Shown in pieces: positions 52,690 through 64,000 of a stretch of DNA of 64,000 nucleotides. Under the pieces are notes generated by a model. It saw only the letters and a program-made list of their open reading frames with translations, had not been told where the DNA came from and did not search any database. Each line of letters opens with the position of its first letter. Position 1 is the first letter of the stretch. The position numbers were made by a program, and so were the translations under genes. This DNA comes from Clostridia bacterium (GTDB lineage Bacteria; Bacillota; Clostridia; TANB77; CAG-508): the NCBI GenBank assembly GCA_022797145.1, contig JAAWKA010000001.1, forward strand, positions 125,745 through 189,744, in the 5' to 3' direction.

Positions 52690-53892
52690 TTATTTTTCAT
52701 TTTCTTTTTCTATGTCTATTATTTTTGTATTTTTTTGTTCTCTTAATTTTAATTCATTTCTACTTAGTTTTCCAACTAATTTTGTTGTTTTTTCTAGATG
52801 CTGTTGTGCTTTTTTCTCTTTTTTAGTAAGTTTTGTTGTTATTTTCTGTTCCTCTTCCATATCAGGAAAATTAATATATGTTTTTATTGTTATAAATAGT
52901 GGTTCTTCTTCTGCCTTTTTATATAAACTATGATCAATGTCTATTGCAACATTTATATATTTTATTGCATTATCTTTATCTCCTTTTAATATACATATTT
53001 TGGCTAAATGGTAATATGCTTTTGGTTCTATATCTTCACTCATAGTACTTCTTAAGAAAAATTTCTCTGCTTCTTCTAAGTCATTATATATTAAACTTAT
53101 TTGTGCAAGTTTATAATATGAATTATATAATAATGTATTTATTTGAGCTGCTTTTTCATAACATATTTTTGCATTTTGAAAATCATTTAGCATTGTATAT
53201 ACCATTCCCATATTATAATATAGATCATAATCATTAGGATTATATTTTAGTGCTTCATTATAAATATTTATTGCTTCTTTGTATCTTTCTTGTTCATGAT
53301 ATATATCTCCTAATAGTTGAGTTGCTTCCTTAAAATCTGGCTTTTTTTGTAATAATGTTTCTAACATTTGTGAAGATTCTTCTTTTTTATCTAATTCATA
53401 CAATAAATATGATATCTTGTAATATGAGTTATAATCTTTTTTATTAATATCAATTACTTGTACATATTCATCTATTGCCTTTCTCATTCCTCCTTCTTTT
53501 TCATATAGTTCTGCAAGTAATTTATGGCCAAAATAGCTCTCTGGATATTTACTTACTAAATTTATTAAAAATTTTTTTGCCATTTTAGGTTTGTTTATAA
53601 ATATTGAAATTTTGGCTAATGACAGAAATATTAATTCTGAAAAATTAATATTTCTATGTTCAACTATTATTACTAATATTGGAATAATTACTGAACATAT
53701 ATATATAATAGATTTCATAAATATATTGATATTTATATTAAATATTATTTCTAAAAAATTTATTGTAATCCCTACTACTTGAATAACTAAAATAAAAAGA
53801 TAGTTTGTATCATTCTTTCTTATCATTTTAAAAAAAATAAATATAAAAAATGAAAATGCCAATACATTAAATATAATTTTCTCAATTAACAT
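52690..53892 (-). CDS. Membrane-anchored TPR-repeat protein
   Basis: Four or five N-terminal TM helices followed by repeated TPR-like units (YYxLAxxYxxxGxxxxAIxxY). Confidence 0.7.
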   Translation of the reverse strand: MLIEKIIFNVLAFSFFIFIFFKMIRKNDTNYLFILVIQVVGITINFLEIIFNININIFMKSIIYICSVIIPILVIIVEHRNINFSELIFLSLAKISIFINKPKMAKKFLINLVSKYPESYFGHKLLAELYEKEGGMRKAIDEYVQVIDINKKDYNSYYKISYLLYELDKKEESSQMLETLLQKKPDFKEATQLLGDIYHEQERYKEAINIYNEALKYNPNDYDLYYNMGMVYTMLNDFQNAKICYEKAAQINTLLYNSYYKLAQISLIYNDLEEAEKFFLRSTMSEDIEPKAYYHLAKICILKGDKDNAIKYINVAIDIDHSLYKKAEEEPLFITIKTYINFPDMEEEQKITTKLTKKEKKAQQHLEKTTKLVGKLSRNELKLREQKNTKIIDIEKENEK

Positions 53893-54061
53893 TTTCTGAG
53901 TTCTCCTCCTTTTTATTGATGCTACTATTTTATGATATTTTGTGGTAAAAGTCTAGTGCTATTGTTTATTTTTTAATAATAGTGTTGTATCTATGAGTAA
54001 ACAATATAACTGTTTGGATTTAGCTCAATTATTTATTCACATTTTTCGCATATTTTTATTT

Positions 54062-54268
54062 TTTTATTAATTCTTAAGGGTTTGTCCTTCAATGTATATA
54101 AGCGATATTTTAATACTGGCTTTCCTGCTCTCAATTCTAGTTGATGGATTTTAGGTTTTAATAGTCCTTGTGTCCACTTAATTAAATATGCTTATCTTAA
54201 CTCCTCTTAATTGAAAAAGAATGTGCTTTTAAAAATACATCAAGGTTATGCGATAGCACATTCATTTT
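54062..54268. repeat. Direct repeat, copy 1 (diverged homologue of 59367-59553)
   Basis: TTTTATTAATTCTTAAGGGTTTGTCCTTCAATGTATATAAGCGAT...CTTTCCTGCTCTCAATTCTAGTTGATGG...TTATGCGATAGCACATTCATTT aligns with copy 2. Confidence 0.75.
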
Positions 54269-54325
54269 AAGCTTGACTTGATTTTATAAAGCACATTACA
54301 ATTTTTATAGAGGATTTAATTTATT

Positions 54326-54881
54326 TTATAACCTCCAATTCAAAAGATTATATTTATCTTCTTTTTCTAGTAAATTGATTTGTCTTTTTATCTCTTCTAT
54401 ATCTTCATTATTAAATCTTTCAAATTTATCATAAAATCCTGTAGATTTATTAGGGAAAATTAATGCTTCTCCCCAAGTTTGAGTTGTTGAATCTTTTGTT
54501 CTACCATATAAGTGAATATGAAATTCTGGATTCATTCCTTTTTGGTATGCCCAGTTTCCATTTTCTTGATAATTTTTAGTAATATAAATATTTTCAAATT
54601 TTTGGGCTTTTTTGTAAATTATTTTTACTTTGCTTAGATTCTAGTTAGATGTTTTAGACATAACAGAATACTTACTATTTATAATATGGATTTAATGACT
54701 TATAATATTGAATACCTACTTTTGGAAATTCATACTTTTCTCCTTTTTCTACCTCATTAATAATTTTTGATGCAGGCTCTAAATAATTATCTATATTGTC
54801 ACTAATTATAATTACCTCTAACATTTTTGTTTTTACGAAAATTCCCTCTTCTCTAAACTCTTTCATATGATTTCCTATCAT
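54326..54881 (-). pseudogene. Fragmented ORF pair; the distal part has a weak HIT-like HxHxx motif
   Basis: ORF 54326-54535 has an in-frame start-less upstream extension (NLSKVKIIYKKAQKFENIYITKNYQENGNWAYQKG-MNPEFHIHLYGR). ORF 54675-54881 is in another frame. The family call is tentative. Confidence 0.3.
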
Positions 54882-54902
54882 ATGTAGAACTTGATTTTTA
54901 AA

Positions 54903-55326
54903 TTATTCATCAATTTCATATTTACTTAAATAATTATCCACAATATGTGTTCCTTCATATGAATGTCCCAATAATTCCGCTCCATTACCTTTTCTTGCTA
55001 TATAATCTTTACTTTCAGAAAAATCATTATACTCATTAGTTTTCCTATGTCATGTAATAAAGCACCAAATATGATTAAATCCATATCTATGTTTAAATTT
55101 GGATACATATTTGCAATATTATAAGAATTTCTAGTTACACAGTAAATATGATAAAGTAATCCCCCTTTGAAATAATGATGTCTACCTGGTGTTGCAAGTT
55201 TATTTATTAGTAGCTCTTTATAATCATTATATATTTCTCGACAACATTCTTTTAATATTGGATTTTTATCTTATTACAATATTCAATACAATTATTATAG
55301 CATTCTTCTATTTCTTTATCAGTCAT
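54903..55326 (-). pseudogene. HD-domain phosphohydrolase (YhaM-like HD core) with two frameshifts, both at A-runs
   Basis: Manual three-frame reading gives MTDKEIEECYNNCIEYCNKIK / ILKECCREIYNDYKELLINKLATPGRHHYFKGGLLYHIYCVTRNSYNIANMYPNLNIDMDLIIFGALLHDIGK / NEYNDFSESKDYIARKGNGAELLGHSYEGTHIVDNYLSKYEIDE. The frame breaks fall at 55263-55267 and 55040-55043. Confidence 0.7.
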
Positions 55327-55768
55327 TTGAATCTTCTCCTTTTTGGCTTATATAGTCCTCTAATATATATCTTTGATATTCATGAAAAAGTTTATCTTTA
55401 TATTCTCTTGGACTTACCCATAAAACCCTATGGTCTTTTTCTATAGGTTCAGTTATTTTTTTATCAAAATTTGCTATATAAAATGTCGCAGTTACATCTA
55501 ATGGACCTCTTTTTCCTCCATGTGCCCATGCAGTAACTTTATCAAAACATTTGATATTTTTTATGCTATATCCTGTTTCTTCTATTACTTCTCTTTTTAA
55601 TGCTTCAATTTCTGTTTCTTCATTTTCAATTCCTCCACCTAAAAAGAAATAAGTTTTTCCTTCTGTAGCTATTGCTATTTTTTTATCCTCTTTTCTTTCT
55701 ATTATTACATATGAAGCAGATCTTTTAGTATATATTACACCTTCTACTTTGTTTCCTATTCTTATCAT
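55319..55768 (-). CDS. NUDIX hydrolase
   Basis: Canonical NUDIX box GGGIENEETEIEALKREVIEETGY. The stop overlaps the start of the HD gene (ATGACTGA). Confidence 0.85.
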   Translation of the reverse strand: MIRIGNKVEGVIYTKRSASYVIIERKEDKKIAIATEGKTYFFLGGGIENEETEIEALKREVIEETGYSIKNIKCFDKVTAWAHGGKRGPLDVTATFYIANFDKKITEPIEKDHRVLWVSPREYKDKLFHEYQRYILEDYISQKGEDSND

Positions 55769-55793
55769 ATTTCTCTCCTATTCTAACTGTTAT

Positions 55794-56636
55794 TTATCTT
55801 TCTATGAAACTTAGTTCTTTTATTGTTTCTTTTCCTATAATCTCATTTGCTAATTCTATCAGTTCATTCCATCTTAATATTTGTACTTTACGATGGACAT
55901 CTATTCCATATAATACTTTTATATTATATTTTGTAGCAACTTTCCAAAACTCTTTGTTAGGATATGAAACTTTGTATAATTTCTTTTTTTGCTCTTCTAT
56001 AGAATCATTATTCAATTTTCTATTTTCGTAATATGTTCTATTAAATATTTGAGCTAAATTTATTTCTAGTGGTATATTGTATTTTTCAGCTGTTTCACAA
56101 ATTATGTTTGCTACTTTATTTTCTATCTTTCCAAAATTATTTCTATTAATCATATAAATATCTGGATGAACAATTATATCTGGTATATTCATTTCCATTG
56201 ATTTTTTTATATATTCTGCATATCTCATTAATTCTTCATCTGTAAAATAGTTGTTTCCAAAAAAAATCTTTAATTTTTTATCATTATCATATATAAAGTG
56301 CTGACCCAAAATAATTTTATCTGTTTCCTCTTTTAATTCTTTGAGATTATTTTCTTCTCCTGGTAAATACTCAACCTCAAATCCACTTTCAATTTGTATT
56401 TTATCTTTATATTTTTCTTTTAAAACATTTATGCTATTTAAATATTCATCTTTTTGACTATATTTCATTCTCATGTCTTTTCTTTTATCTATCTCATTTT
56501 TCTCTGGGCAGTGATCTGTAAATGCAATTTTCTCAAATCCCATTTTTATATATTCTTTTATATAATCTTCATCTTTCATATCCAAATCTGCATGTCCACA
56601 TCTATATGTATGTGAATGGTAATTAAATTTTTGCAT
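55794..56636 (-). CDS. PHP-family phosphoesterase (HisJ/histidinol-phosphatase-like)
   Basis: NYHSHTYRCGHA, FTDHCP and HPD motifs. GGAGG upstream of ATG 56636. Confidence 0.8.
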   Translation of the reverse strand: MQKFNYHSHTYRCGHADLDMKDEDYIKEYIKMGFEKIAFTDHCPEKNEIDKRKDMRMKYSQKDEYLNSINVLKEKYKDKIQIESGFEVEYLPGEENNLKELKEETDKIILGQHFIYDNDKKLKIFFGNNYFTDEELMRYAEYIKKSMEMNIPDIIVHPDIYMINRNNFGKIENKVANIICETAEKYNIPLEINLAQIFNRTYYENRKLNNDSIEEQKKKLYKVSYPNKEFWKVATKYNIKVLYGIDVHRKVQILRWNELIELANEIIGKETIKELSFIER

Positions 56637-56776
56637 CTTATGTATTCCTCCAATTCTTTTATTTATGCTAACTATACCATAAAAAATCAAAAAAACAAAG
56701 CATATAACAAATTAAATTGTTAAATACTTTACATTTTAAGTTTTATCTCCAAGCATTCATATATTTTATAATCAAT

Positions 56777-58645
56777 TTATACTACTCCACACACCATATC
56801 AACTTCTATTGTTACCCCTATTTCATGATTTTCTATTCTTTTAACCTTATTTTTGCCTTTTCCCTCAAAACTAATAAAATCCTTAAATACACTAAATTTA
56901 ACTATTGTATCAATTTTTTTAGATATAGCACCGAGCAACACTCGACGTGGCTTACATATAGGCTGTAGATAGTTTTTGCTAACCTCGTATGATGACTGTT
57001 GATTTTTGTCTTCTTTTTCATCCTCTTTGCATTTAATTTCATTGCCACTTTTTAAGATAAATGTTATGACTCTCGGATTAGTTTTCCCTTTACTGTCCTT
57101 TTCTCCTATTATAACTTTTTCTATCATTAATTCAAAAACATCTTTGTCAAATTCTGGCATAATTTCATTGTCTTTAAACAAAGTTTTAAACTTGTTTAAT
57201 CCTTGATTTAAACTAATTGAATCCTCTAATTCAATTTGTAAATGCTCTTGTTCTTTTTCTATTTGATTGATTTTGTTTTGTAGTTTTGCTTTCTTTTCTT
57301 GCAATGTTTCTAATGTTATTGTTCCATTTAAGTTTAAATCAATTAGTTTGTCTATCTTTTCTTTTAAAATTTGCTTTTCTTCCCCTAGTCTTTTAATAGA
57401 ACTTTCGTTACTTTCTTCTTGTATAATTTCTTCCATTTCATTTAAGAATGTTTGGATTAGTTATAAGTTATTATTACATAATAACTTATAACTTTCGGTA
57501 AATACTTCTTCTATTATGTTTTCTTTCATAGCTTTACAGTGTGGACAATTTTCCTTTCCATGTTTTACAAATTCCATACAATGCCAAACTGTAATGCTGT
57601 TTTTCGTTCCAGAATGCCAGTTTCTTCTTGTAAGTAAGCTACCACAGAAACCACAATATAATCTACTACTAAAAGGATATTTTCTACTAAAGTTGCCTTT
57701 TCTTCTTCCAGAACCTCGAACTCCTGCTCGCTTTTGCAAAATTTCTTGTGCTTGATTAAACATTCTTTCAGAGATGATTGGCTCATGATGTTCTTGTATA
57801 TAATATTGATTTTCTTCTCCCATATTGACTACTCTTCTATGTGAGATTGGATCTGTTGTATATGTTTTTCCTTGCAAGACATCTCCTTTGTATTCTTCGT
57901 TTTTCAAAATACCTCTTATGGTTGATTCGTGCCATTTCTTTTTACCTGTTGGAGTTTTGTATTTCATATTTGTTAGTTCTTTTGCTATTGTTGTACAGCC
58001 TACTCCTTGGCAGTATCTTTCAAAGATATATCTTACTATTTCTGCTTCTTCGTAATTAATTGAGATTTCTTTTGTGTCTTTATGATATACATATCCTAAA
58101 CATCCATTATATCCAATTAGTTCTCCTCTTTTCTGTTTCATTTGTAAACCCAATTTTACATGTGAAGAAATATTTTCGCTTTCTTGTTGTGCCATTGCAC
58201 TTAATACTGTTAGCATGATTTCTCCTGATATTTCTAAAGTATTTATTCTTTCTTCTTCAAAGTAAATAGCAATTCCTTTTTCTTTTAACCCTCTTACATA
58301 TTTTAAGGTATCAACTGTGTTCCTTCCAAATCTTGATATTGATTTTGTAATTATCATATCAAATTTGTTATTTGTAGCATCTTGCATCATTTTCATAAAG
58401 CCATCTCTTTTATAGTCTAGTGTTCCTGTTATTCCTTTATCCGCATAAATACCAACATATTTCCAATCACTATTTGCTTTTATCTTTTCTTCATAATACT
58501 TTAGTTGGAAATTATAACTGTTTATTTGTTCTTCTTTTTCTGTACTTACTCTTGCATAGGTACATACTCTTAAGTTTCCTTTTATTTCTTCTCCTGTTGT
58601 TCTATTAATTCGACCTTTTTTCTTCTCTATAACTTGTACTTTCAA
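56777..58645 (-). pseudogene. Large serine recombinase interrupted by one in-frame TAA (394 aa + stop + 227 aa in the same frame)
   Basis: The N-terminal resolvase domain has the catalytic YARVST. It is followed by a recombinase domain, a zinc ribbon (CGFCG...CMEF...CPHC), a coiled coil and a DUF4368-like tail. 58645-57436 = 1209 nt, so both ORFs share one frame and are separated by the TAA at 57461-57463. Confidence 0.8.
57459..57493. repeat. Perfect 16-bp-arm palindrome inside the recombinase gene, containing the premature stop
   Basis: AGTTATAAGTTATTAT-TAC-ATAATAACTTATAACT (plus strand). Confidence 0.9.
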
Positions 58646-58712
58646 AATTAACCTTCCTTTCTCAAGTTTAGAGAATCTTTATGTGCTTATTATACATCAA
58701 AAGTTAAATTTT

Positions 58713-58898
58713 TCAAATACCTATGTGAGTTAAATTGTATTCTTGTAGGATATTTTGCTTTAATTCTAAATATCTCTTTTCTTTAATTAGTCCTGCTTTA
58801 AATGTTTTGTTTAATATTGCTATTTTTATACTGCAATTAAATATATTTTTGTTTAACTTGATGTTTTTCGTATTATCAAAATTGACTTCATATAACAT
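58713..58898 (-). CDS. Small hypothetical protein (61 aa) immediately upstream of the recombinase
   Basis: Strong SD GGAGGAG 7 nt upstream of the ATG. Basic and Lys-rich. No family recognised. Confidence 0.55.
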   Translation of the reverse strand: MLYEVNFDNTKNIKLNKNIFNCSIKIAILNKTFKAGLIKEKRYLELKQNILQEYNLTHIGI

Positions 58899-58943
58899 AA
58901 AAATTCTCCTCCTTGAATAATTTAGATTTCAAAAAAGGCAACA

Positions 58944-58974
58944 GAAAAAGCCAGTCGGCTAGCTTCGACTGACT
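58944..58974 (-). terminator. Strong GC-rich intrinsic terminator about 45 nt upstream of the small-ORF start
   Basis: Minus strand reads AGUCAGUCG-AAGCUAGC-CGACUGGCU (9 bp including one G-U), followed by UUUUUCUGUUGCCUUUUUU. Confidence 0.75.
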
Positions 58975-59086
58975 TGATTGTTTTACATTTTTTGATAATA
59001 CGATTATATTATGCTATTCTATAAAGTTCAATTCCCGTTTTTTTCCCTTTTTTCTATTTAAATTTATAAAATATTGATTTCTAGGT

Positions 59087-59336
59087 AAGTACACTAAGTG
59101 TACTTGCATAAAAAACTTTGAAAATTTATTTTTATAATCCTTATTTGTGCGTTCACTTAGTGTACTTTTTGCTAATTTTTTTGAAATTTTAAGTTCACTT
59201 GGTGTACTTTATTTTAAATTTCAATCAAATTCAAGTACACTTGGTGAACTAATCTATGTATTTTTATAAAATTTAGTACATTTAGTGAACTTTAGCACTA
59301 TAATAGGCATTTTTTAACCATTCACTCGGTGAATTT
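59087..59336. repeat. Phased array of six 19-bp palindromic repeats (iteron/operator-like)
   Basis: Copies: AAGTACACTAAGTGTACTT (59087), GCGTTCACTTAGTGTACTT (59149), AAGTTCACTTGGTGTACTT (59191), AAGTACACTTGGTGAACTA (59233), TAGTACATTTAGTGAACTT (59274), CCATTCACTCGGTGAATTT (59318). Centre-to-centre spacing is 62, 42, 42, 41 and 44 bp. Confidence 0.85.
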
Positions 59337-59366
59337 TCACATCGAATTTGCTTAAAATTTTTGTTC

Positions 59367-59553
59367 TTTTATTAACTCTTGAAGGCTTGTCCTTCAATGT
59401 GTATAGGCGATGTGTGAACACTCGCTTTCCTGCCCTCAATTTTAATTGAGGTATTTCTGTTTTTATAGTATTTATGTATACTTAATTAGATATACTTATT
59501 TTTACAATCTTCATTTAAGATTTTATTAAAATTATGTGACAGCATATTCATTT
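59367..59553. repeat. Direct repeat, copy 2 (homologue of 54062-54268)
   Basis: TTTTATTAACTCTTGAAGGCTTGTCCTTCAATGTGTATAGGCGATGTGTGAACACTCGCTTTCCTGCCCTCAATTTTAATTGAGG...TTATGTGACAGCATATTCATTT. Confidence 0.75.
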
Positions 59554-59580
59554 CTAAATTCCTATATATTTTTGAATCTA

Positions 59581-62500
59581 TTAAATAGATCTTTTTAATT
59601 TTAAAACTTCTTTTATTGGTACATTTTTCATATCTGATGGTATTATAGGATCATCATCTTTCAAAATTGCTGCTGACTCTAAATCATATTTACTGATTTC
59701 ACAAGCTTGCATAATATTAACTTTTTTAAGACATATCTCATATTCTAACAAAGGAACTATTTGTTGGTTAGATATTACCATTGGTAAAAGAGTAATTTTA
59801 GGATTATTTTCATTACGGATTATCTCTTCCAAAATTCTTATATTTTTATCGTCAGTACAATTCATCTGATGAAAACGTGTAGCACTATTAATAATAATAT
59901 TTTCAGAATTGTCTTTTGGAATTTTTACTTTTCCTGTAATCATAACCCTATAGTCATAAATATTTGTTTTACTAATTCCTTTTATAAATGAAACTACAAT
60001 ATTCCCATCTATATCTTCTTTAGTAGCATTATCTATTAGGTCTTGAAAAACCTTTTTAGCTCCTTCCTCATTTTCAAATAAAAAACCTATTTTAATAAAC
60101 TCTTTATTTATTACATCTCCTAAATACACGACTCCTTTCCATTTAGCAACATCCCAATGATTACATTTAATCATTCCGGAAGAATAAATGTTTCTATGTG
60201 AAATATTTTCAAATGGATTATTTTCTGGAACTCCATATATAATATCTTTTTTCTCTGCAAAGGGTTCAATCGTTTCTTCCTTTATCTTATATTTTTTTAC
60301 ATTTGTATACCATTCTTTATCTCTGCTAATACTACAATTAGGTATGTCTATATCTTCCTCTTTACCAAATATTTTATTAAGATTATATAAACTATTTGTA
60401 TGATTTAAACTTCTTTCAAAACTCTTATCATCTTCAAATATTTCTTTAAAAGTTTTTTCATAATCTTCATATATAAAATTAACCGCCAATATATTCGTTA
60501 ATAACTTAAATAATATATCCGTTATTAAGTTATGATTTTCTACAGAAATATCATACATTTCAAATGAATCTAAAGTTATTGTATAAGTGTCTATTCCATC
60601 AAATGAATAATTAATATCAAACTTTCCAGTATTTTTTTGTTGTAATAGTATAACAATATCTCCACGCATATAAGTATGATGAGTATGAATTGTAGCAAAG
60701 GTATTTTCTAATAATGCTATTAAAAATTCAACAAATCTATGCATTAATTTTGAAGATATAAAGACTATCTTTATTTTATTACCACACAAAAATGAATAAA
60801 TTGTCCTTTCGCTTCCATTATTATAAACTGGTAATGGAAGCTTTTGATTTAGTGAATCTTTATAAAATTCTTCTATTAATTTATCTACTTTTCCTTTATC
60901 ACCATTACATTCTTCTAATAATTGATTATCATACTCACCTATTGCATACTTAGCCATAACTTCTGAAGTTACTAATCCATTTTTATGACACATCTCAATT
61001 ATTTTTGGCAAAAGATGAAAATCTGACATTTTTGTATTCAATATTTCTGAAGAAATTAATGCATCTCGTTGTAAAAAATAGTCATTTTCTTCATCAAAGT
61101 TTATATTTTCATTACTTTCATATAAAATACTTAATAAAATATGTTTAATAGAAAACCATTCTATTACTTCCTCTATATTGCCATTACTAATTTCTAAATC
61201 TATAATTCTATTTATTACTTTAAGTGAAAATGAATCTAAATATCTATCCTTTAAATAAATATCTATAAACATTGTAATAGCTGCTATATAATAGTTTTTA
61301 GCAACATAATGTAATCCTATAGATTCAAAATTGCCACCAATATTAACATAGGCTTCTACTAACTTGCCATCTGTTTCCTCTTTATACAGGAATGTTAAAC
61401 ATTTACCCAAAATATTAATTGCTTCATAATATTTTTTATTAGATACCAACATTTTAGATTTTTTTAAGTACATTTCCGCTCTTTGTATTTCACAATTTCT
61501 ATTTGATAATTTGTCTGTTACTAATTCATACAGCTGATTATACTTATCATTATTGCAAAATATTGGTAACATATTTTCAACCATTTTTGATAAAGTAAGG
61601 AAATCGTATTCTTTAAATCTTGTTGCTTCTTCAACAATAGCTATAAGATTATCAAATTGTTTATCTATATTCTCTTCTAATAAAATATTTATAATACACA
61701 TTTGAGTTTCTGCCTTTAATTGCGTAACTCTACTTTGAGATTTTTCTTTTTCATTTAAAAGATTTAATAATATATTTGTTTCATCTTTCACTTCATTTTT
61801 ATTTCTATTTTTTCTCGTATATAGTAATGTCCATAATGTAGCTAATTTTAATATTTCTTCTATTTTTTTATCTTTGATAACTTCATTTTGATATTCTATG
61901 TAATACTTTTCAAAATTAGTATCATCGTTTAACCACCAATTGTAGTACCATGCTAAATCATACAAAATATTTCTTTTATCTACAATATTATTTTTTTCTT
62001 TTGCCAATCTTAATGCACGTTCAAACTTTCCTACAACTGTTGCTTCATCCTCTTCTAAATCTCTACTCAAAATAGCTGACTCTATAGAGAGATCTATAAC
62101 ATCTTGATTTACTATTTTTTTTAAACAATAATCCTGCAATTTCTTTTCTATTTCTTCTACTTGCCTATGTTTCTTTAAATCGTTTGGACCAATTTGATTT
62201 TCTTTTAGTGGTTGAGTAATATTTATTATTTTTAGCAAATCCAAATTTTTAACATTGAGTGCTTTGTCTAATATCCATGTTTTATCTAAAACTCTTATTT
62301 CTACTCCTGTTTCTTTGCTCTTGTTATCTTGATATTCCAATTTTTTATCATTTTTAATTGCTTGATTCGTTATAAAGAAAATCTTTGTATAACCCCTGTT
62401 TGTTTCTATAATCTTTTTTATATCTCCATCACATTTTGATTTCCAAGCTTTTTTTAAACTAACTGCAAATGCCCATCTATCATTTTTTTCATTTAAACCA

Positions 62501-62781
62501 TACCACCAATAATTTTGAATATCTCTTGATACTGGATAATTTTCTGTATCAATTTTCCCATCTCCTCCTCCAGCTGGTCCAGTTTCTTCTATTAAATTAG
62601 GGCAAATCTCTCTTTTTAACAAATTTCTTATAAAATCTTCAAAATCAAAATGTTTATTTTGTTCTGCCAACTTTGATAAATGAAAATCTAGTAATTCTCT
62701 TGGACATTCAATCTTATCTATAATCTTTGAATCTGAAAATTGATTAGGATGTAACTTCCTTAATAAATCTTTAGGTTCCAT
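59581..62781 (-). CDS. 1066-aa protein: N-terminal Mrr/PD-(D/E)xK-like nuclease motif, central TPR-like helical repeats, unassigned C-terminal domain
   Basis: Pattern FEDFIRNLL...EE(65-66)TGPAGGGDGKID(71-78)...AFAVSLK(110). Helical repeats run roughly over residues 230-620. No Walker A/B. AAGGAGAG SD. Confidence 0.6.
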   Translation of the reverse strand: MEPKDLLRKLHPNQFSDSKIIDKIECPRELLDFHLSKLAEQNKHFDFEDFIRNLLKREICPNLIEETGPAGGGDGKIDTENYPVSRDIQNYWWYGLNEKNDRWAFAVSLKKAWKSKCDGDIKKIIETNRGYTKIFFITNQAIKNDKKLEYQDNKSKETGVEIRVLDKTWILDKALNVKNLDLLKIINITQPLKENQIGPNDLKKHRQVEEIEKKLQDYCLKKIVNQDVIDLSIESAILSRDLEEDEATVVGKFERALRLAKEKNNIVDKRNILYDLAWYYNWWLNDDTNFEKYYIEYQNEVIKDKKIEEILKLATLWTLLYTRKNRNKNEVKDETNILLNLLNEKEKSQSRVTQLKAETQMCIINILLEENIDKQFDNLIAIVEEATRFKEYDFLTLSKMVENMLPIFCNNDKYNQLYELVTDKLSNRNCEIQRAEMYLKKSKMLVSNKKYYEAINILGKCLTFLYKEETDGKLVEAYVNIGGNFESIGLHYVAKNYYIAAITMFIDIYLKDRYLDSFSLKVINRIIDLEISNGNIEEVIEWFSIKHILLSILYESNENINFDEENDYFLQRDALISSEILNTKMSDFHLLPKIIEMCHKNGLVTSEVMAKYAIGEYDNQLLEECNGDKGKVDKLIEEFYKDSLNQKLPLPVYNNGSERTIYSFLCGNKIKIVFISSKLMHRFVEFLIALLENTFATIHTHHTYMRGDIVILLQQKNTGKFDINYSFDGIDTYTITLDSFEMYDISVENHNLITDILFKLLTNILAVNFIYEDYEKTFKEIFEDDKSFERSLNHTNSLYNLNKIFGKEEDIDIPNCSISRDKEWYTNVKKYKIKEETIEPFAEKKDIIYGVPENNPFENISHRNIYSSGMIKCNHWDVAKWKGVVYLGDVINKEFIKIGFLFENEEGAKKVFQDLIDNATKEDIDGNIVVSFIKGISKTNIYDYRVMITGKVKIPKDNSENIIINSATRFHQMNCTDDKNIRILEEIIRNENNPKITLLPMVISNQQIVPLLEYEICLKKVNIMQACEISKYDLESAAILKDDDPIIPSDMKNVPIKEVLKLKRSI

Positions 62782-62813
62782 ATTCTCTCCTTCTTTATAT
62801 AATATACTTATTG

Positions 62814-63815
62814 TTAATCTTTCTTCTCAATCTTACTATTTATTTCTTTTAGTGCTTTTAAATATTCCTTTTCAACAGGACTAATAGTTTTAACTTGATA
62901 TTTTTTATATTCCGATTTTGCTTTTTCAATTGCTTGTTCATGGCTAACCGTACCTGCACCTATTAATAATTTTTCTCCTGTAGAAGAAAGAATTGTGTCT
63001 AATTGTTTAATATAATCTTCCATATACATTGGATTATGTCTTATTGCTTGTATTTCTGCAAAATCGAAATACCCTGATACTAAATTACTTAAAACTTTCA
63101 ATTCTTCTTCACTTAAATAATTTTTAGCAATTACTACATCACTCAATATTGGAATATCTCCTTTAAAAGTTGTTAATCCCATAAAAGGCTTTTCAGAATC
63201 TGCTCTTTCATATATTACTTCTGAAGCAGTATGTCCATGTGTCGCATAATGTAATTTATTTTGAACAATTTTAAAAAATTTAATTGATTTTTCATCTTTT
63301 GGATTATAATCTACTGCTGTTGCATATAAATCAAGAACTTGCCTATAAAGTACCTTTTCTGATGATCTAATATCCTTAATTCTGGCAAGTAATTCTCTCC
63401 AATAATTTCCTCCACCATTTCCTTTAAGTCTTTCATCATCCATAGTAAAACCTTTTATCATATATTCTTTTAATCTTTCTGTCGCCCATTTTCTAAAATT
63501 AGTAGCAACTTTAGATTTTATTCTATATCCCAACGAAATTATCATGTCTAAATTATAAAAGGGAATTTCTCTTGAAACATTTCTATTTCCCTCTTTTCGA
63601 ACTTGTCGGAAATTCTGACAAGTTGAATTCTTATCAAGTTCCTCTTCTAAATAAATATTATTTATATGTTCTATAACATTTGTTCTTGAAGTACAAAATA
63701 ATTCTGCCATTTGTTGTTGTGATAACCACACGCTTTCATTTTGAACTTTAACATCTATTTTTGTTAATCCATCGTCTGTTTGGTATATTATAATATCTCC
63801 ATTTTCATTATTCAT
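62814..63815 (-). CDS. RhuM-family protein
   Basis: N-terminus ...IIIYQTDDGLTKIDVKVQNESVWLSQQQMAELFCTSRTNVIEHINNIY and a body typical of RhuM-family proteins. Lies 32 nt upstream of the 1066-aa ORF. Confidence 0.7.
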   Translation of the reverse strand: MNNENGDIIIYQTDDGLTKIDVKVQNESVWLSQQQMAELFCTSRTNVIEHINNIYLEEELDKNSTCQNFRQVRKEGNRNVSREIPFYNLDMIISLGYRIKSKVATNFRKWATERLKEYMIKGFTMDDERLKGNGGGNYWRELLARIKDIRSSEKVLYRQVLDLYATAVDYNPKDEKSIKFFKIVQNKLHYATHGHTASEVIYERADSEKPFMGLTTFKGDIPILSDVVIAKNYLSEEELKVLSNLVSGYFDFAEIQAIRHNPMYMEDYIKQLDTILSSTGEKLLIGAGTVSHEQAIEKAKSEYKKYQVKTISPVEKEYLKALKEINSKIEKKD

Positions 63816-64000
63816 TACGAATTTCTCCTTTCTTTTGCGAACATTTGTATTGTATCATGTTTCTTAATAACATTCAATGTTTTTAGCAAAATTTGTAAAA
63901 TTTTATTGATACTACAGATAAATTATATTATAATAATTTTACATTAATTGTTGCACACTTATAAAGTGTGGAGTTTGTTTCATCTTTTATAAAGATGCTT

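Follow-up and report, generated by a model that had tools for sequence, protein, structure and literature searches.

The giant protein examined here is encoded on the minus strand of a stretch of 64,000 nucleotides (nt) from a Clostridia bacterium (assembly GCA_022797145.1, contig JAAWKA010000001.1, positions 125,745 to 189,744 of the forward strand). We refer to this whole stretch as the window and use its numbering throughout. We read the 1066-amino-acid (aa) product of this open reading frame (ORF) as a self-contained sensor-effector of a defence or mobile island that works without a nucleoside triphosphatase (NTPase), and we put the probability of this reading at roughly 55%. The protein is probably a new single-protein anti-phage sensor, a defence function being suggested by its genomic context. 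Its parts, i.e. an Mrr-like nuclease and TPR repeats, are known, as is the logic of joining sensor and effector in a single protein; what is new is that the NTPase is missing and that a domain without detectable relatives has been added. The giant ORF and its predicted regions are laid out as follows.

59581..62781, minus strand: giant ORF, 1066 aa, from the ORF list; member of an unnamed family kept at full length
62212..62664, minus strand: predicted Mrr-like PD-(D/E)xK core, residues ~40-190, from the AlphaFold2 (AF2) model, Foldseek and the invariant residues
60862..62136, minus strand: TPR-like helical repeat region, residues ~216-640, from weak profile matches
59584..60834, minus strand: predicted two-lobed alpha/beta module, residues ~650-1066, from the AF2 model; no detectable relatives

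We used AF2 to model residues 1-215 from 35 sequences, which gave a predicted local distance difference test score (pLDDT) of 80. The modelled order of elements is alpha-beta-beta-beta-alpha-beta: a helix at residues 44-58 carries E48, a strand at 103-108 ends in S108, and a helix at 113-126 and a strand at 133-138 follow. Two further stretches, at about residues 64-65 and 79-80, pair on either side of the Gly-rich loop that holds D74 and D78 but are not long enough to count as strands. When this model was compared with the PDB by Foldseek, the top match was Avs4 (chain 8dgf_A; E-value 2.1e-4, probability 1.00, 20% identity over 194 columns); we assume from the known architecture of this 1541-residue chain that the aligned part is its nuclease domain. 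EcoT38I, MspJI, AspBHI and FokI came next, and the best six PDB matches were all nucleases of the restriction endonuclease (REase) fold, with probabilities of 0.82-1.00.

The core motifs of the domain are E48, D74-x-K76-x-D78, S108-x-K110, K116 and FFITNQ. Among 87 homologues, whose identity falls as low as ~24-30%, residues D74, K76, D78, S108, K116, D120, R129 and Y131 are invariant; position 48 is E in 86 of them and a gap in one, and position 110 is K in 82, R in four and M in one. Invariance at such low identity indicates that chance does not explain the nuclease-motif features. The REase fold is shared with E. coli Mrr and the Mrr_cat family, MspJI and AspBHI, and a comparison by eye with E. 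coli Mrr placed four motifs (FE, GxGDGxID, hhhXxK and hFITx) in the same order in both proteins: the FE motif (RFEVIVLDVL in Mrr, DFEDFIRNLL in the giant protein), the Gly-rich Asp loop (GGTGDGGIDG and GPAGGGDGKID), the hhhXxK motif (VYVQAK and FAVSLK) and the strand that follows it (VFITTSGF and IFFITNQA). The giant protein differs from Mrr in having ~20 extra residues between the D and S-x-K motifs, and from Mrr and Type IV enzymes in that its nuclease-like domain is N-terminal and is accompanied by no recognised DNA-reader domain. On the AF2 model, the N-terminal domain is predicted to have the PD-(D/E)xK fold, and we call it Mrr-like without filing it as a member of Pfam Mrr_cat.

Evidence for TPR-like repeats in the middle of the protein comes from weak matches. 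In the window protein itself, Pfam TPR_8 matched residues 435-463 below threshold (E-value 0.021, 15.4 bits against a cut-off of 25.7), while among 38 homologues TPR_8 was matched in five, TPR_12 in five, TPR_1 in three and TPR_2 in two, the best E-value being 1.5e-6 (TPR_1). The family profile matched HOP TPR2A among PDB sequences (E-value 0.003), and searches of PDB sequences with the full protein, both as a single sequence and as a profile, gave weak TPR matches and nothing else. Since a conserved W/Y/A/G pattern across residues 230-640 resembles further degenerate repeats, we infer that the helical region extends beyond residues ~390-530 to a total of roughly 400 aa. The protein also has no NTPase. 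A Walker A regular expression matched five of the 87 sequences, at unrelated positions, so that no Walker A motif is conserved, and the AAA, NACHT and NB-ARC families of Pfam had no match in the window protein or the 38 homologues. Residues G71-K76 had been considered as a P-loop; this was rejected, as they lie inside the REase fold, match GDGGID of Mrr and do not fit [AG]x4GK[ST] across the family.

The C-terminal part was modelled with confidence over residues 596-1066 from 29 sequences, with a pLDDT of 84.7 and a predicted template modelling score (pTM) of 0.81. The model contains two alpha/beta lobes, at ~655-805 and ~865-1066, with a variable linker between them. Foldseek returned nothing below an E-value of 0.1 in the PDB and nothing below 0.03 in BFVD for this model, and a search of PDB sequences with the C-terminal profile returned nothing below 0.69. 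G667, E692, W876, W881 and Y944 are invariant in the module, and near-invariant positions include E685, T697, R790, H862, D923, R969 and N980. Weak, recurrent Foldseek matches (probability ≤0.6) to zincin-type peptidases (M1 aminopeptidases, SprT-like and IrrE-like proteins) were rejected, as HExxH is absent and the scores are at noise level. As modelled, this module of ~420 aa is the new element of the family, without a structural match in the PDB or BFVD.

An earlier, sequence-only reading of this DNA had proposed much the same domain plan. The residues that it quoted stand at the numbers it gave (F47-E48-D49-F50, E65-E66, G71-G72-G73-D74-G75-K76-I77-D78 and S108-L109-K110), and its TPR-like strings are present in the translation. 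The PD-(D/E)xK or Mrr-like N-terminus that it suspected is borne out by the AF2 model and the Foldseek matches in the PDB, and its TPR-like middle by the weak Pfam matches in homologues and the HOP TPR2A profile match. The last ~430 aa, in which it had recognised no motif, form a module in the AF2 model and remained without a match in the Foldseek searches of the PDB and BFVD and in the PDB profile search. Its view that there is no Walker A motif or NTPase agrees with the sporadic regular expression matches.

The giant protein had no family match above threshold in Pfam, NCBIfam, PADLOC or PHROGs. A collection of 5.8 billion proteins contained 208 homologues, nearly all of 1045-1130 aa and alignable end to end, which are called 'hypothetical protein' where they have any name. 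When one genome per species was scanned for the family pattern, 389 of 185,579 species genomes proved to contain a relative. Relatives occur in Clostridia, Bacilli, Negativicutes, Bacteroidota, Pseudomonas, Xanthomonas, Alpha- and Betaproteobacteria, Cyanobacteria, Acidobacteriota, Verrucomicrobiota, Planctomycetota, Chloroflexota and others. Members of the family are also carried on plasmids and some prophage contigs, with 13 plasmids, ten of them predicted to be conjugative or mobilizable, and 16 IMG/VR contigs. A profile of the C-terminal 470 aa, searched against 1.84 billion representatives, matched 1,872 clusters (50% identity) at E ≤ 0.001 and 843 at E ≤ 1e-30. In the complete proteins among the best 150 of these matches, the module lies at about residues 600-1100 of a chain of 1045-1141 aa, and no alternative architecture was found among them; in the shorter entries the match always reaches the C-terminus of the protein, and these are therefore apparently fragments cut off at contig ends. 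Across many phyla, the architecture of three parts and the length of ~1070 aa are fixed, and the distribution is broad and sparse.

Compared with distant homologues, the window protein retains 45% identity in the nuclease core and 31% in lobe 2, whereas the helical region is at 21-25%, lobe 1 at 19% and the linker at 15%. By this measure no other part is as well conserved as the N-terminal domain. Immune sensors show the same combination of a well-kept effector and a remainder that diverges, although here the pattern is suggestive only. Truncated relatives were seen at two loci, L087 (Pantoea sp. At-9b plasmid pPAT9B02) and L116 (an IMG/VR contig): one is an 837-aa protein without the nuclease domain, and another is a 412-aa N-terminal fragment that adjoins a tyrosine integrase and putative phage structural genes. 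They are likely products of decay or insertion.

The surroundings of the giant gene are those of mosaic islands of defence and mobile genes, in which no partner is conserved. The 141 immediate neighbours match 90 Pfam families, including Phage_integrase (4), DEAD (3), Abi_C (3), the MmeI Type IIG restriction-modification family (2), HerA (2), RhuM (2), Resolvase (2), ResIII (2), ToxN and AbiEii. The next ring contains Resolvase, integrases, six DNA methyltransferases, ResIII, AIPR and DarT1-NADAR, together with housekeeping genes. Clustering of the ±5 neighbours of 80 loci in search of a conserved partner revealed only lineage-restricted synteny. A conserved protein of 239 aa without a Pfam match precedes all six Pseudomonas and Xanthomonas homologues (L067, L070, L071, L075, L076 and L083). 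This protein is 187 aa long in L071, stands at position -2 in L067 and is separated by gaps of 121-193 nt where it is immediately upstream; it may be a lineage-specific partner, or the arrangement may be mere shared synteny. Three Bacillaceae loci (L033, L034 and L044) have an Abi_C (abortive infection C-terminus) protein of ~285 aa at +1. On Agrobacterium tumefaciens plasmid pAt2 (L088), a 1067-aa homologue lies divergently beside a gene for an 883-aa 'SMEK domain-containing protein' and a radical SAM gene.

In the window, the giant ORF is preceded by a RhuM-family gene, and the question arises of whether the two form one system.

62814..63815, minus strand: RhuM-family gene, 333 aa, from Pfam PF13310 and PADLOC PDC-S05
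62782..62813, minus strand: 32-nt spacer with the Shine-Dalgarno site AAGGAGAG of the giant ORF, from sequence inspection

The RhuM ORF matches Pfam PF13310 (E-value 6.7e-108) over profile positions 1-248 of 252, i.e. over its full length, and PADLOC PDC-S05 (E-value 4.9e-157). The sequence-only reading had described two co-directional minus-strand ORFs, the first of the RhuM family and the second with a strong Shine-Dalgarno site, and this description is correct: both ORFs start with ATG, 32 nt separate them, and AAGGAGAG lies ~5 nt before the ATG of the giant ORF. It was also right to place a recombinase module beside the pair, a large serine recombinase being found directly downstream, and the neighbour family counts agree with its expectation that homologues would lie among mobile and defence genes. 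Its two-gene module, in the form proposed, is not supported. Its proposal of an effector, a sensor and an unfamiliar domain paired with RhuM holds for the domain parts, the absence of an NTPase and the island context, and fails for RhuM as a family-wide partner.

The strongest form of that proposal, in which RhuM and the giant ORF are an obligate two-gene system with RhuM as second effector, regulator or antitoxin-like partner, has real points in its favour. The genes are co-directional, the second has its own Shine-Dalgarno site, and the pair, always spaced by 25-32 nt, turns up with at least five different sets of flanking genes, which indicates that the cassette moves as a unit within one Clostridia subclade; in P0003 (91% identity), for example, the order is secA, RhuM, giant gene and RNase_T protein, and in P0019 (72% identity) the pair has integrases on its flanks. 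In addition, the slot of RhuM is taken in L009 and L103 (73% identity) by a Fic gene, which follows an integrase and lies 11 nt upstream of the giant gene, and RhuM, itself proposed to be a protein-modifying toxin, has been proposed to be interchangeable as a toxin with DOC/Fic (PMC3710099). However, RhuM adjoins the giant gene only in relatives of at least 72% identity, i.e. the window, P0003, L007, L010, L016 and P0019, and a tblastn search with RhuM over all fetched loci matched only copies of the window, L002, L003, L007, L010 and L016. Fic replaces it in the equally close L009 and L103. At 60-66% identity the slot is occupied by AbiEi/AbiEii (L012 and L013), integrases (L015 and P0025) or a 259-aa DUF3991-like protein (L011 and P0035), and none of 70 distant loci had a RhuM match in flanks of up to 10 kb. 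Together with the spread of immediate neighbours over 90 families and the cataloguing of RhuM itself in PADLOC as a single-gene candidate (PDC-S05), this makes an obligate pair unlikely. The restriction of RhuM to close relatives indicates that the unit is the giant gene alone. RhuM is a putative toxin or defence gene in its own right, a local companion captured in one Clostridia subclade into an operon-like cassette, in which the two genes are probably co-transcribed. The likeness to the RhuM family and PDC-S05 belongs only to the 333-aa upstream ORF and not to the giant ORF.

Two further explanations concern the giant protein by itself. It could be a Type IV-like (modification-dependent) or otherwise DNA-directed restriction endonuclease, in which the C-terminal module reads a DNA feature and the Mrr-like domain cuts. 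MspJI, AspBHI and EcoT38I among its structural neighbours, its Mrr-type motifs and the absence of a conserved methyltransferase partner, as expected of a Type IV enzyme, fit this idea, and the invariant W876, W881 and Y944 of the last domain could form a base-binding pocket. We regard it as improbable, as Foldseek revealed no resemblance between the C-terminal model and DNA-reader folds such as SRA, EVE or winged-helix, a TPR-like stretch of ~400 aa would be unusual in a restriction enzyme and is typical of protein recognition, and the best structural match overall is the chain of Avs4, an immune sensor rather than a restriction enzyme. Alternatively, the protein could serve the mobile elements themselves, for instance as a nuclease for addiction or exclusion, or as an accessory that processes DNA for integrative elements and plasmids. 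Recombinases are indeed the commonest neighbours, the gene is found on conjugative plasmids, and DUF3991, TrwB, DUF961 and a DprA-like gene are conjugation-related neighbours; but neither a type of mobile element nor a partner is conserved, many loci lack a recombinase within 10 kb, and defence genes often have the same association with mobile elements, which leaves this explanation with little likelihood.

The reading that we prefer, a self-contained sensor-effector, would operate as follows. The variable TPR and C-terminal part would bind a cue derived from the invader, for which a phage protein is the most plausible candidate. The nuclease domains would be freed or brought together as a result and would then cut DNA, resulting in abortive infection or destruction of the invader DNA. 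Sensing and activation would be analogous to those of Avs and Upx. A broader version, which we offer only tentatively, is that the family is a widespread and hitherto unrecognised class of NTPase-independent pattern-recognition nucleases, in which the bilobed module, as a sensor fold, and the TPR solenoid might together detect some conserved component of phages and thereby activate an Mrr nuclease of the Avs4 type, with no need for nucleotide-driven oligomerisation.

Comparison with known systems indicates where the protein would stand. Avs4 (PDB 8dgf), an antiviral STAND NTPase with an N-terminal Mrr-like nuclease and the best PDB match of the giant N-terminal model, resembles it in the order of effector followed by helical or TPR repeats, in being encoded by a single gene and in its defence-island contexts. 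However, Avs4 needs its STAND ATPase, whereas the giant protein has no STAND or other NTPase module; it also has no PADLOC Avs match, is 1066 aa long as against ~1540 aa, and carries a C-terminal alpha/beta module of ~420 aa that has no counterpart in Avs4. Upx, which reportedly goes back to Gao 2020, is likewise a single large protein without a STAND NTPase that joins a large unannotated sensor to a divergent PD-(D/E)xK nuclease, and it is the nearest precedent for how the giant protein could work. The two differ in that the nuclease of Upx is C-terminal and that of the giant protein is N-terminal, and in that the Upx sensor is described as acting by beta-augmentation rather than by TPR. They have no sequence similarity either, the giant protein having had no PADLOC match to Upx at E-values up to 0.1, with a Upx model presumably included in PADLOC-DB 2.0.0. 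Upx has been described as an NTPase-free terminase sensor with a divergent PD-(D/E)xK nuclease (PMC13601566), and STAND and non-STAND defence proteins have been reported to share sensor domains (PMC13581612).

Several observations weigh against the sensor-effector reading. Template modelling (TM) scores of the Foldseek matches of the N-terminal domain are modest, about 0.42, and the loop at residues 67-75, which carries D74, is modelled with a pLDDT below 50. Ser (S108) stands where the (D/E/Q)xK motif normally has E or Q, as it does in Mrr, and this substitution together with the low-pLDDT loop leaves the active-site geometry and catalytic competence of the predicted nuclease unproven. There is no similarity to Mrr at the profile level: hhalign of the N-terminal profile with the single sequence of E. 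coli Mrr gave a probability of 0.3% and aligned only the FITT/FITN strand, and Pfam Mrr_cat (PF04471) matched neither the window protein nor any of the 38 homologues. A role as sensor is wholly inferred for the TPR and C-terminal part, and no defence model or annotation matches the giant protein. As for context, many neighbours are housekeeping genes (e.g. secA, prfB, phosphotransferase system (PTS) and biotin synthase genes), and enrichment in defence islands was judged from family counts without genomic-background statistics.

The RhuM-giant gene cassette is not tied to one site. In related Clostridia (L090-L093 (P0003), L009 and L103) it lies immediately downstream of secA, with the arrangement secA, RhuM and giant gene, or SecA / SEC-C-motif gene, integrase, Fic and giant gene, and the secA site resembles a hotspot at which variable cargo integrates. 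The window has its copy at another locus, next to the dpaA/uppP/pheS region. The RhuM proteins of L010 and the window are ~90% identical and the adjoining giant proteins only ~72%, which reflects either much faster evolution of the giant gene or recombination of the pair.

Two possible signals lie on either side of the pair in the window.

63849..63877, minus strand: promoter-like site TTGAAT-17-TACAAT with extended TG, upstream of RhuM, a consensus match only
58948..58975, minus strand: terminator-like hairpin and T-run, ~600 nt downstream of the giant ORF, from a hairpin scan

The first could possibly be the promoter of the operon, and the number of promoter-like sites equals the shuffle expectation, whereas eight terminator-like hairpins were found in the scanned region against 0.6 expected. 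The ~600 nt from the stop codon of the giant ORF to the hairpin (58976-59580) are apparently non-coding, with a 61-aa ORF (58713-58898) beyond, and an Rfam search of 54000-64000, which includes this stretch, gave no match.

The downstream serine recombinase has Resolvase, Recombinase and Zn_ribbon_recom domains and is followed by PHP, NUDIX, a TPR protein, dpaA, uppP and pheS, an order that places the RhuM-giant gene pair at the edge of an island abutting core genes. The recombinase (56777-58645, minus strand) is split into a 394-aa ORF (Resolvase, Recombinase and Zn ribbon) and a 219-aa ORF that corresponds to the C-terminal part of an integrase (phrog_95), the two being divided by a single in-frame TAA at 57461-57463; the same two-ORF pattern is present in the JGI contig L001. 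It is probably a nonsense-inactivated integrase, in which case the island would be immobile. The 400-aa protein encoded at 52690-53892 (minus strand), which adjoins dpaA and has a hydrophobic N-terminal region and a TPR-rich C-terminal half, is unrelated to the giant ORF.

The RhuM and Fic genes packed against defence genes in these islands provide a test case for whether such genes are functional partners or island neighbours. Neither Pfam and NCBIfam nor PHROGs and PADLOC contain the family, which current pipelines for defence annotation therefore overlook. If our reading of the giant protein is correct, the family would represent an immune sensor that keeps the effector and TPR logic of Avs proteins, dispenses with the STAND ATPase and adds a module of ~420 aa without structural precedent in the PDB or BFVD, and it would raise the question of what controls activation when assembly is not driven by nucleotides.

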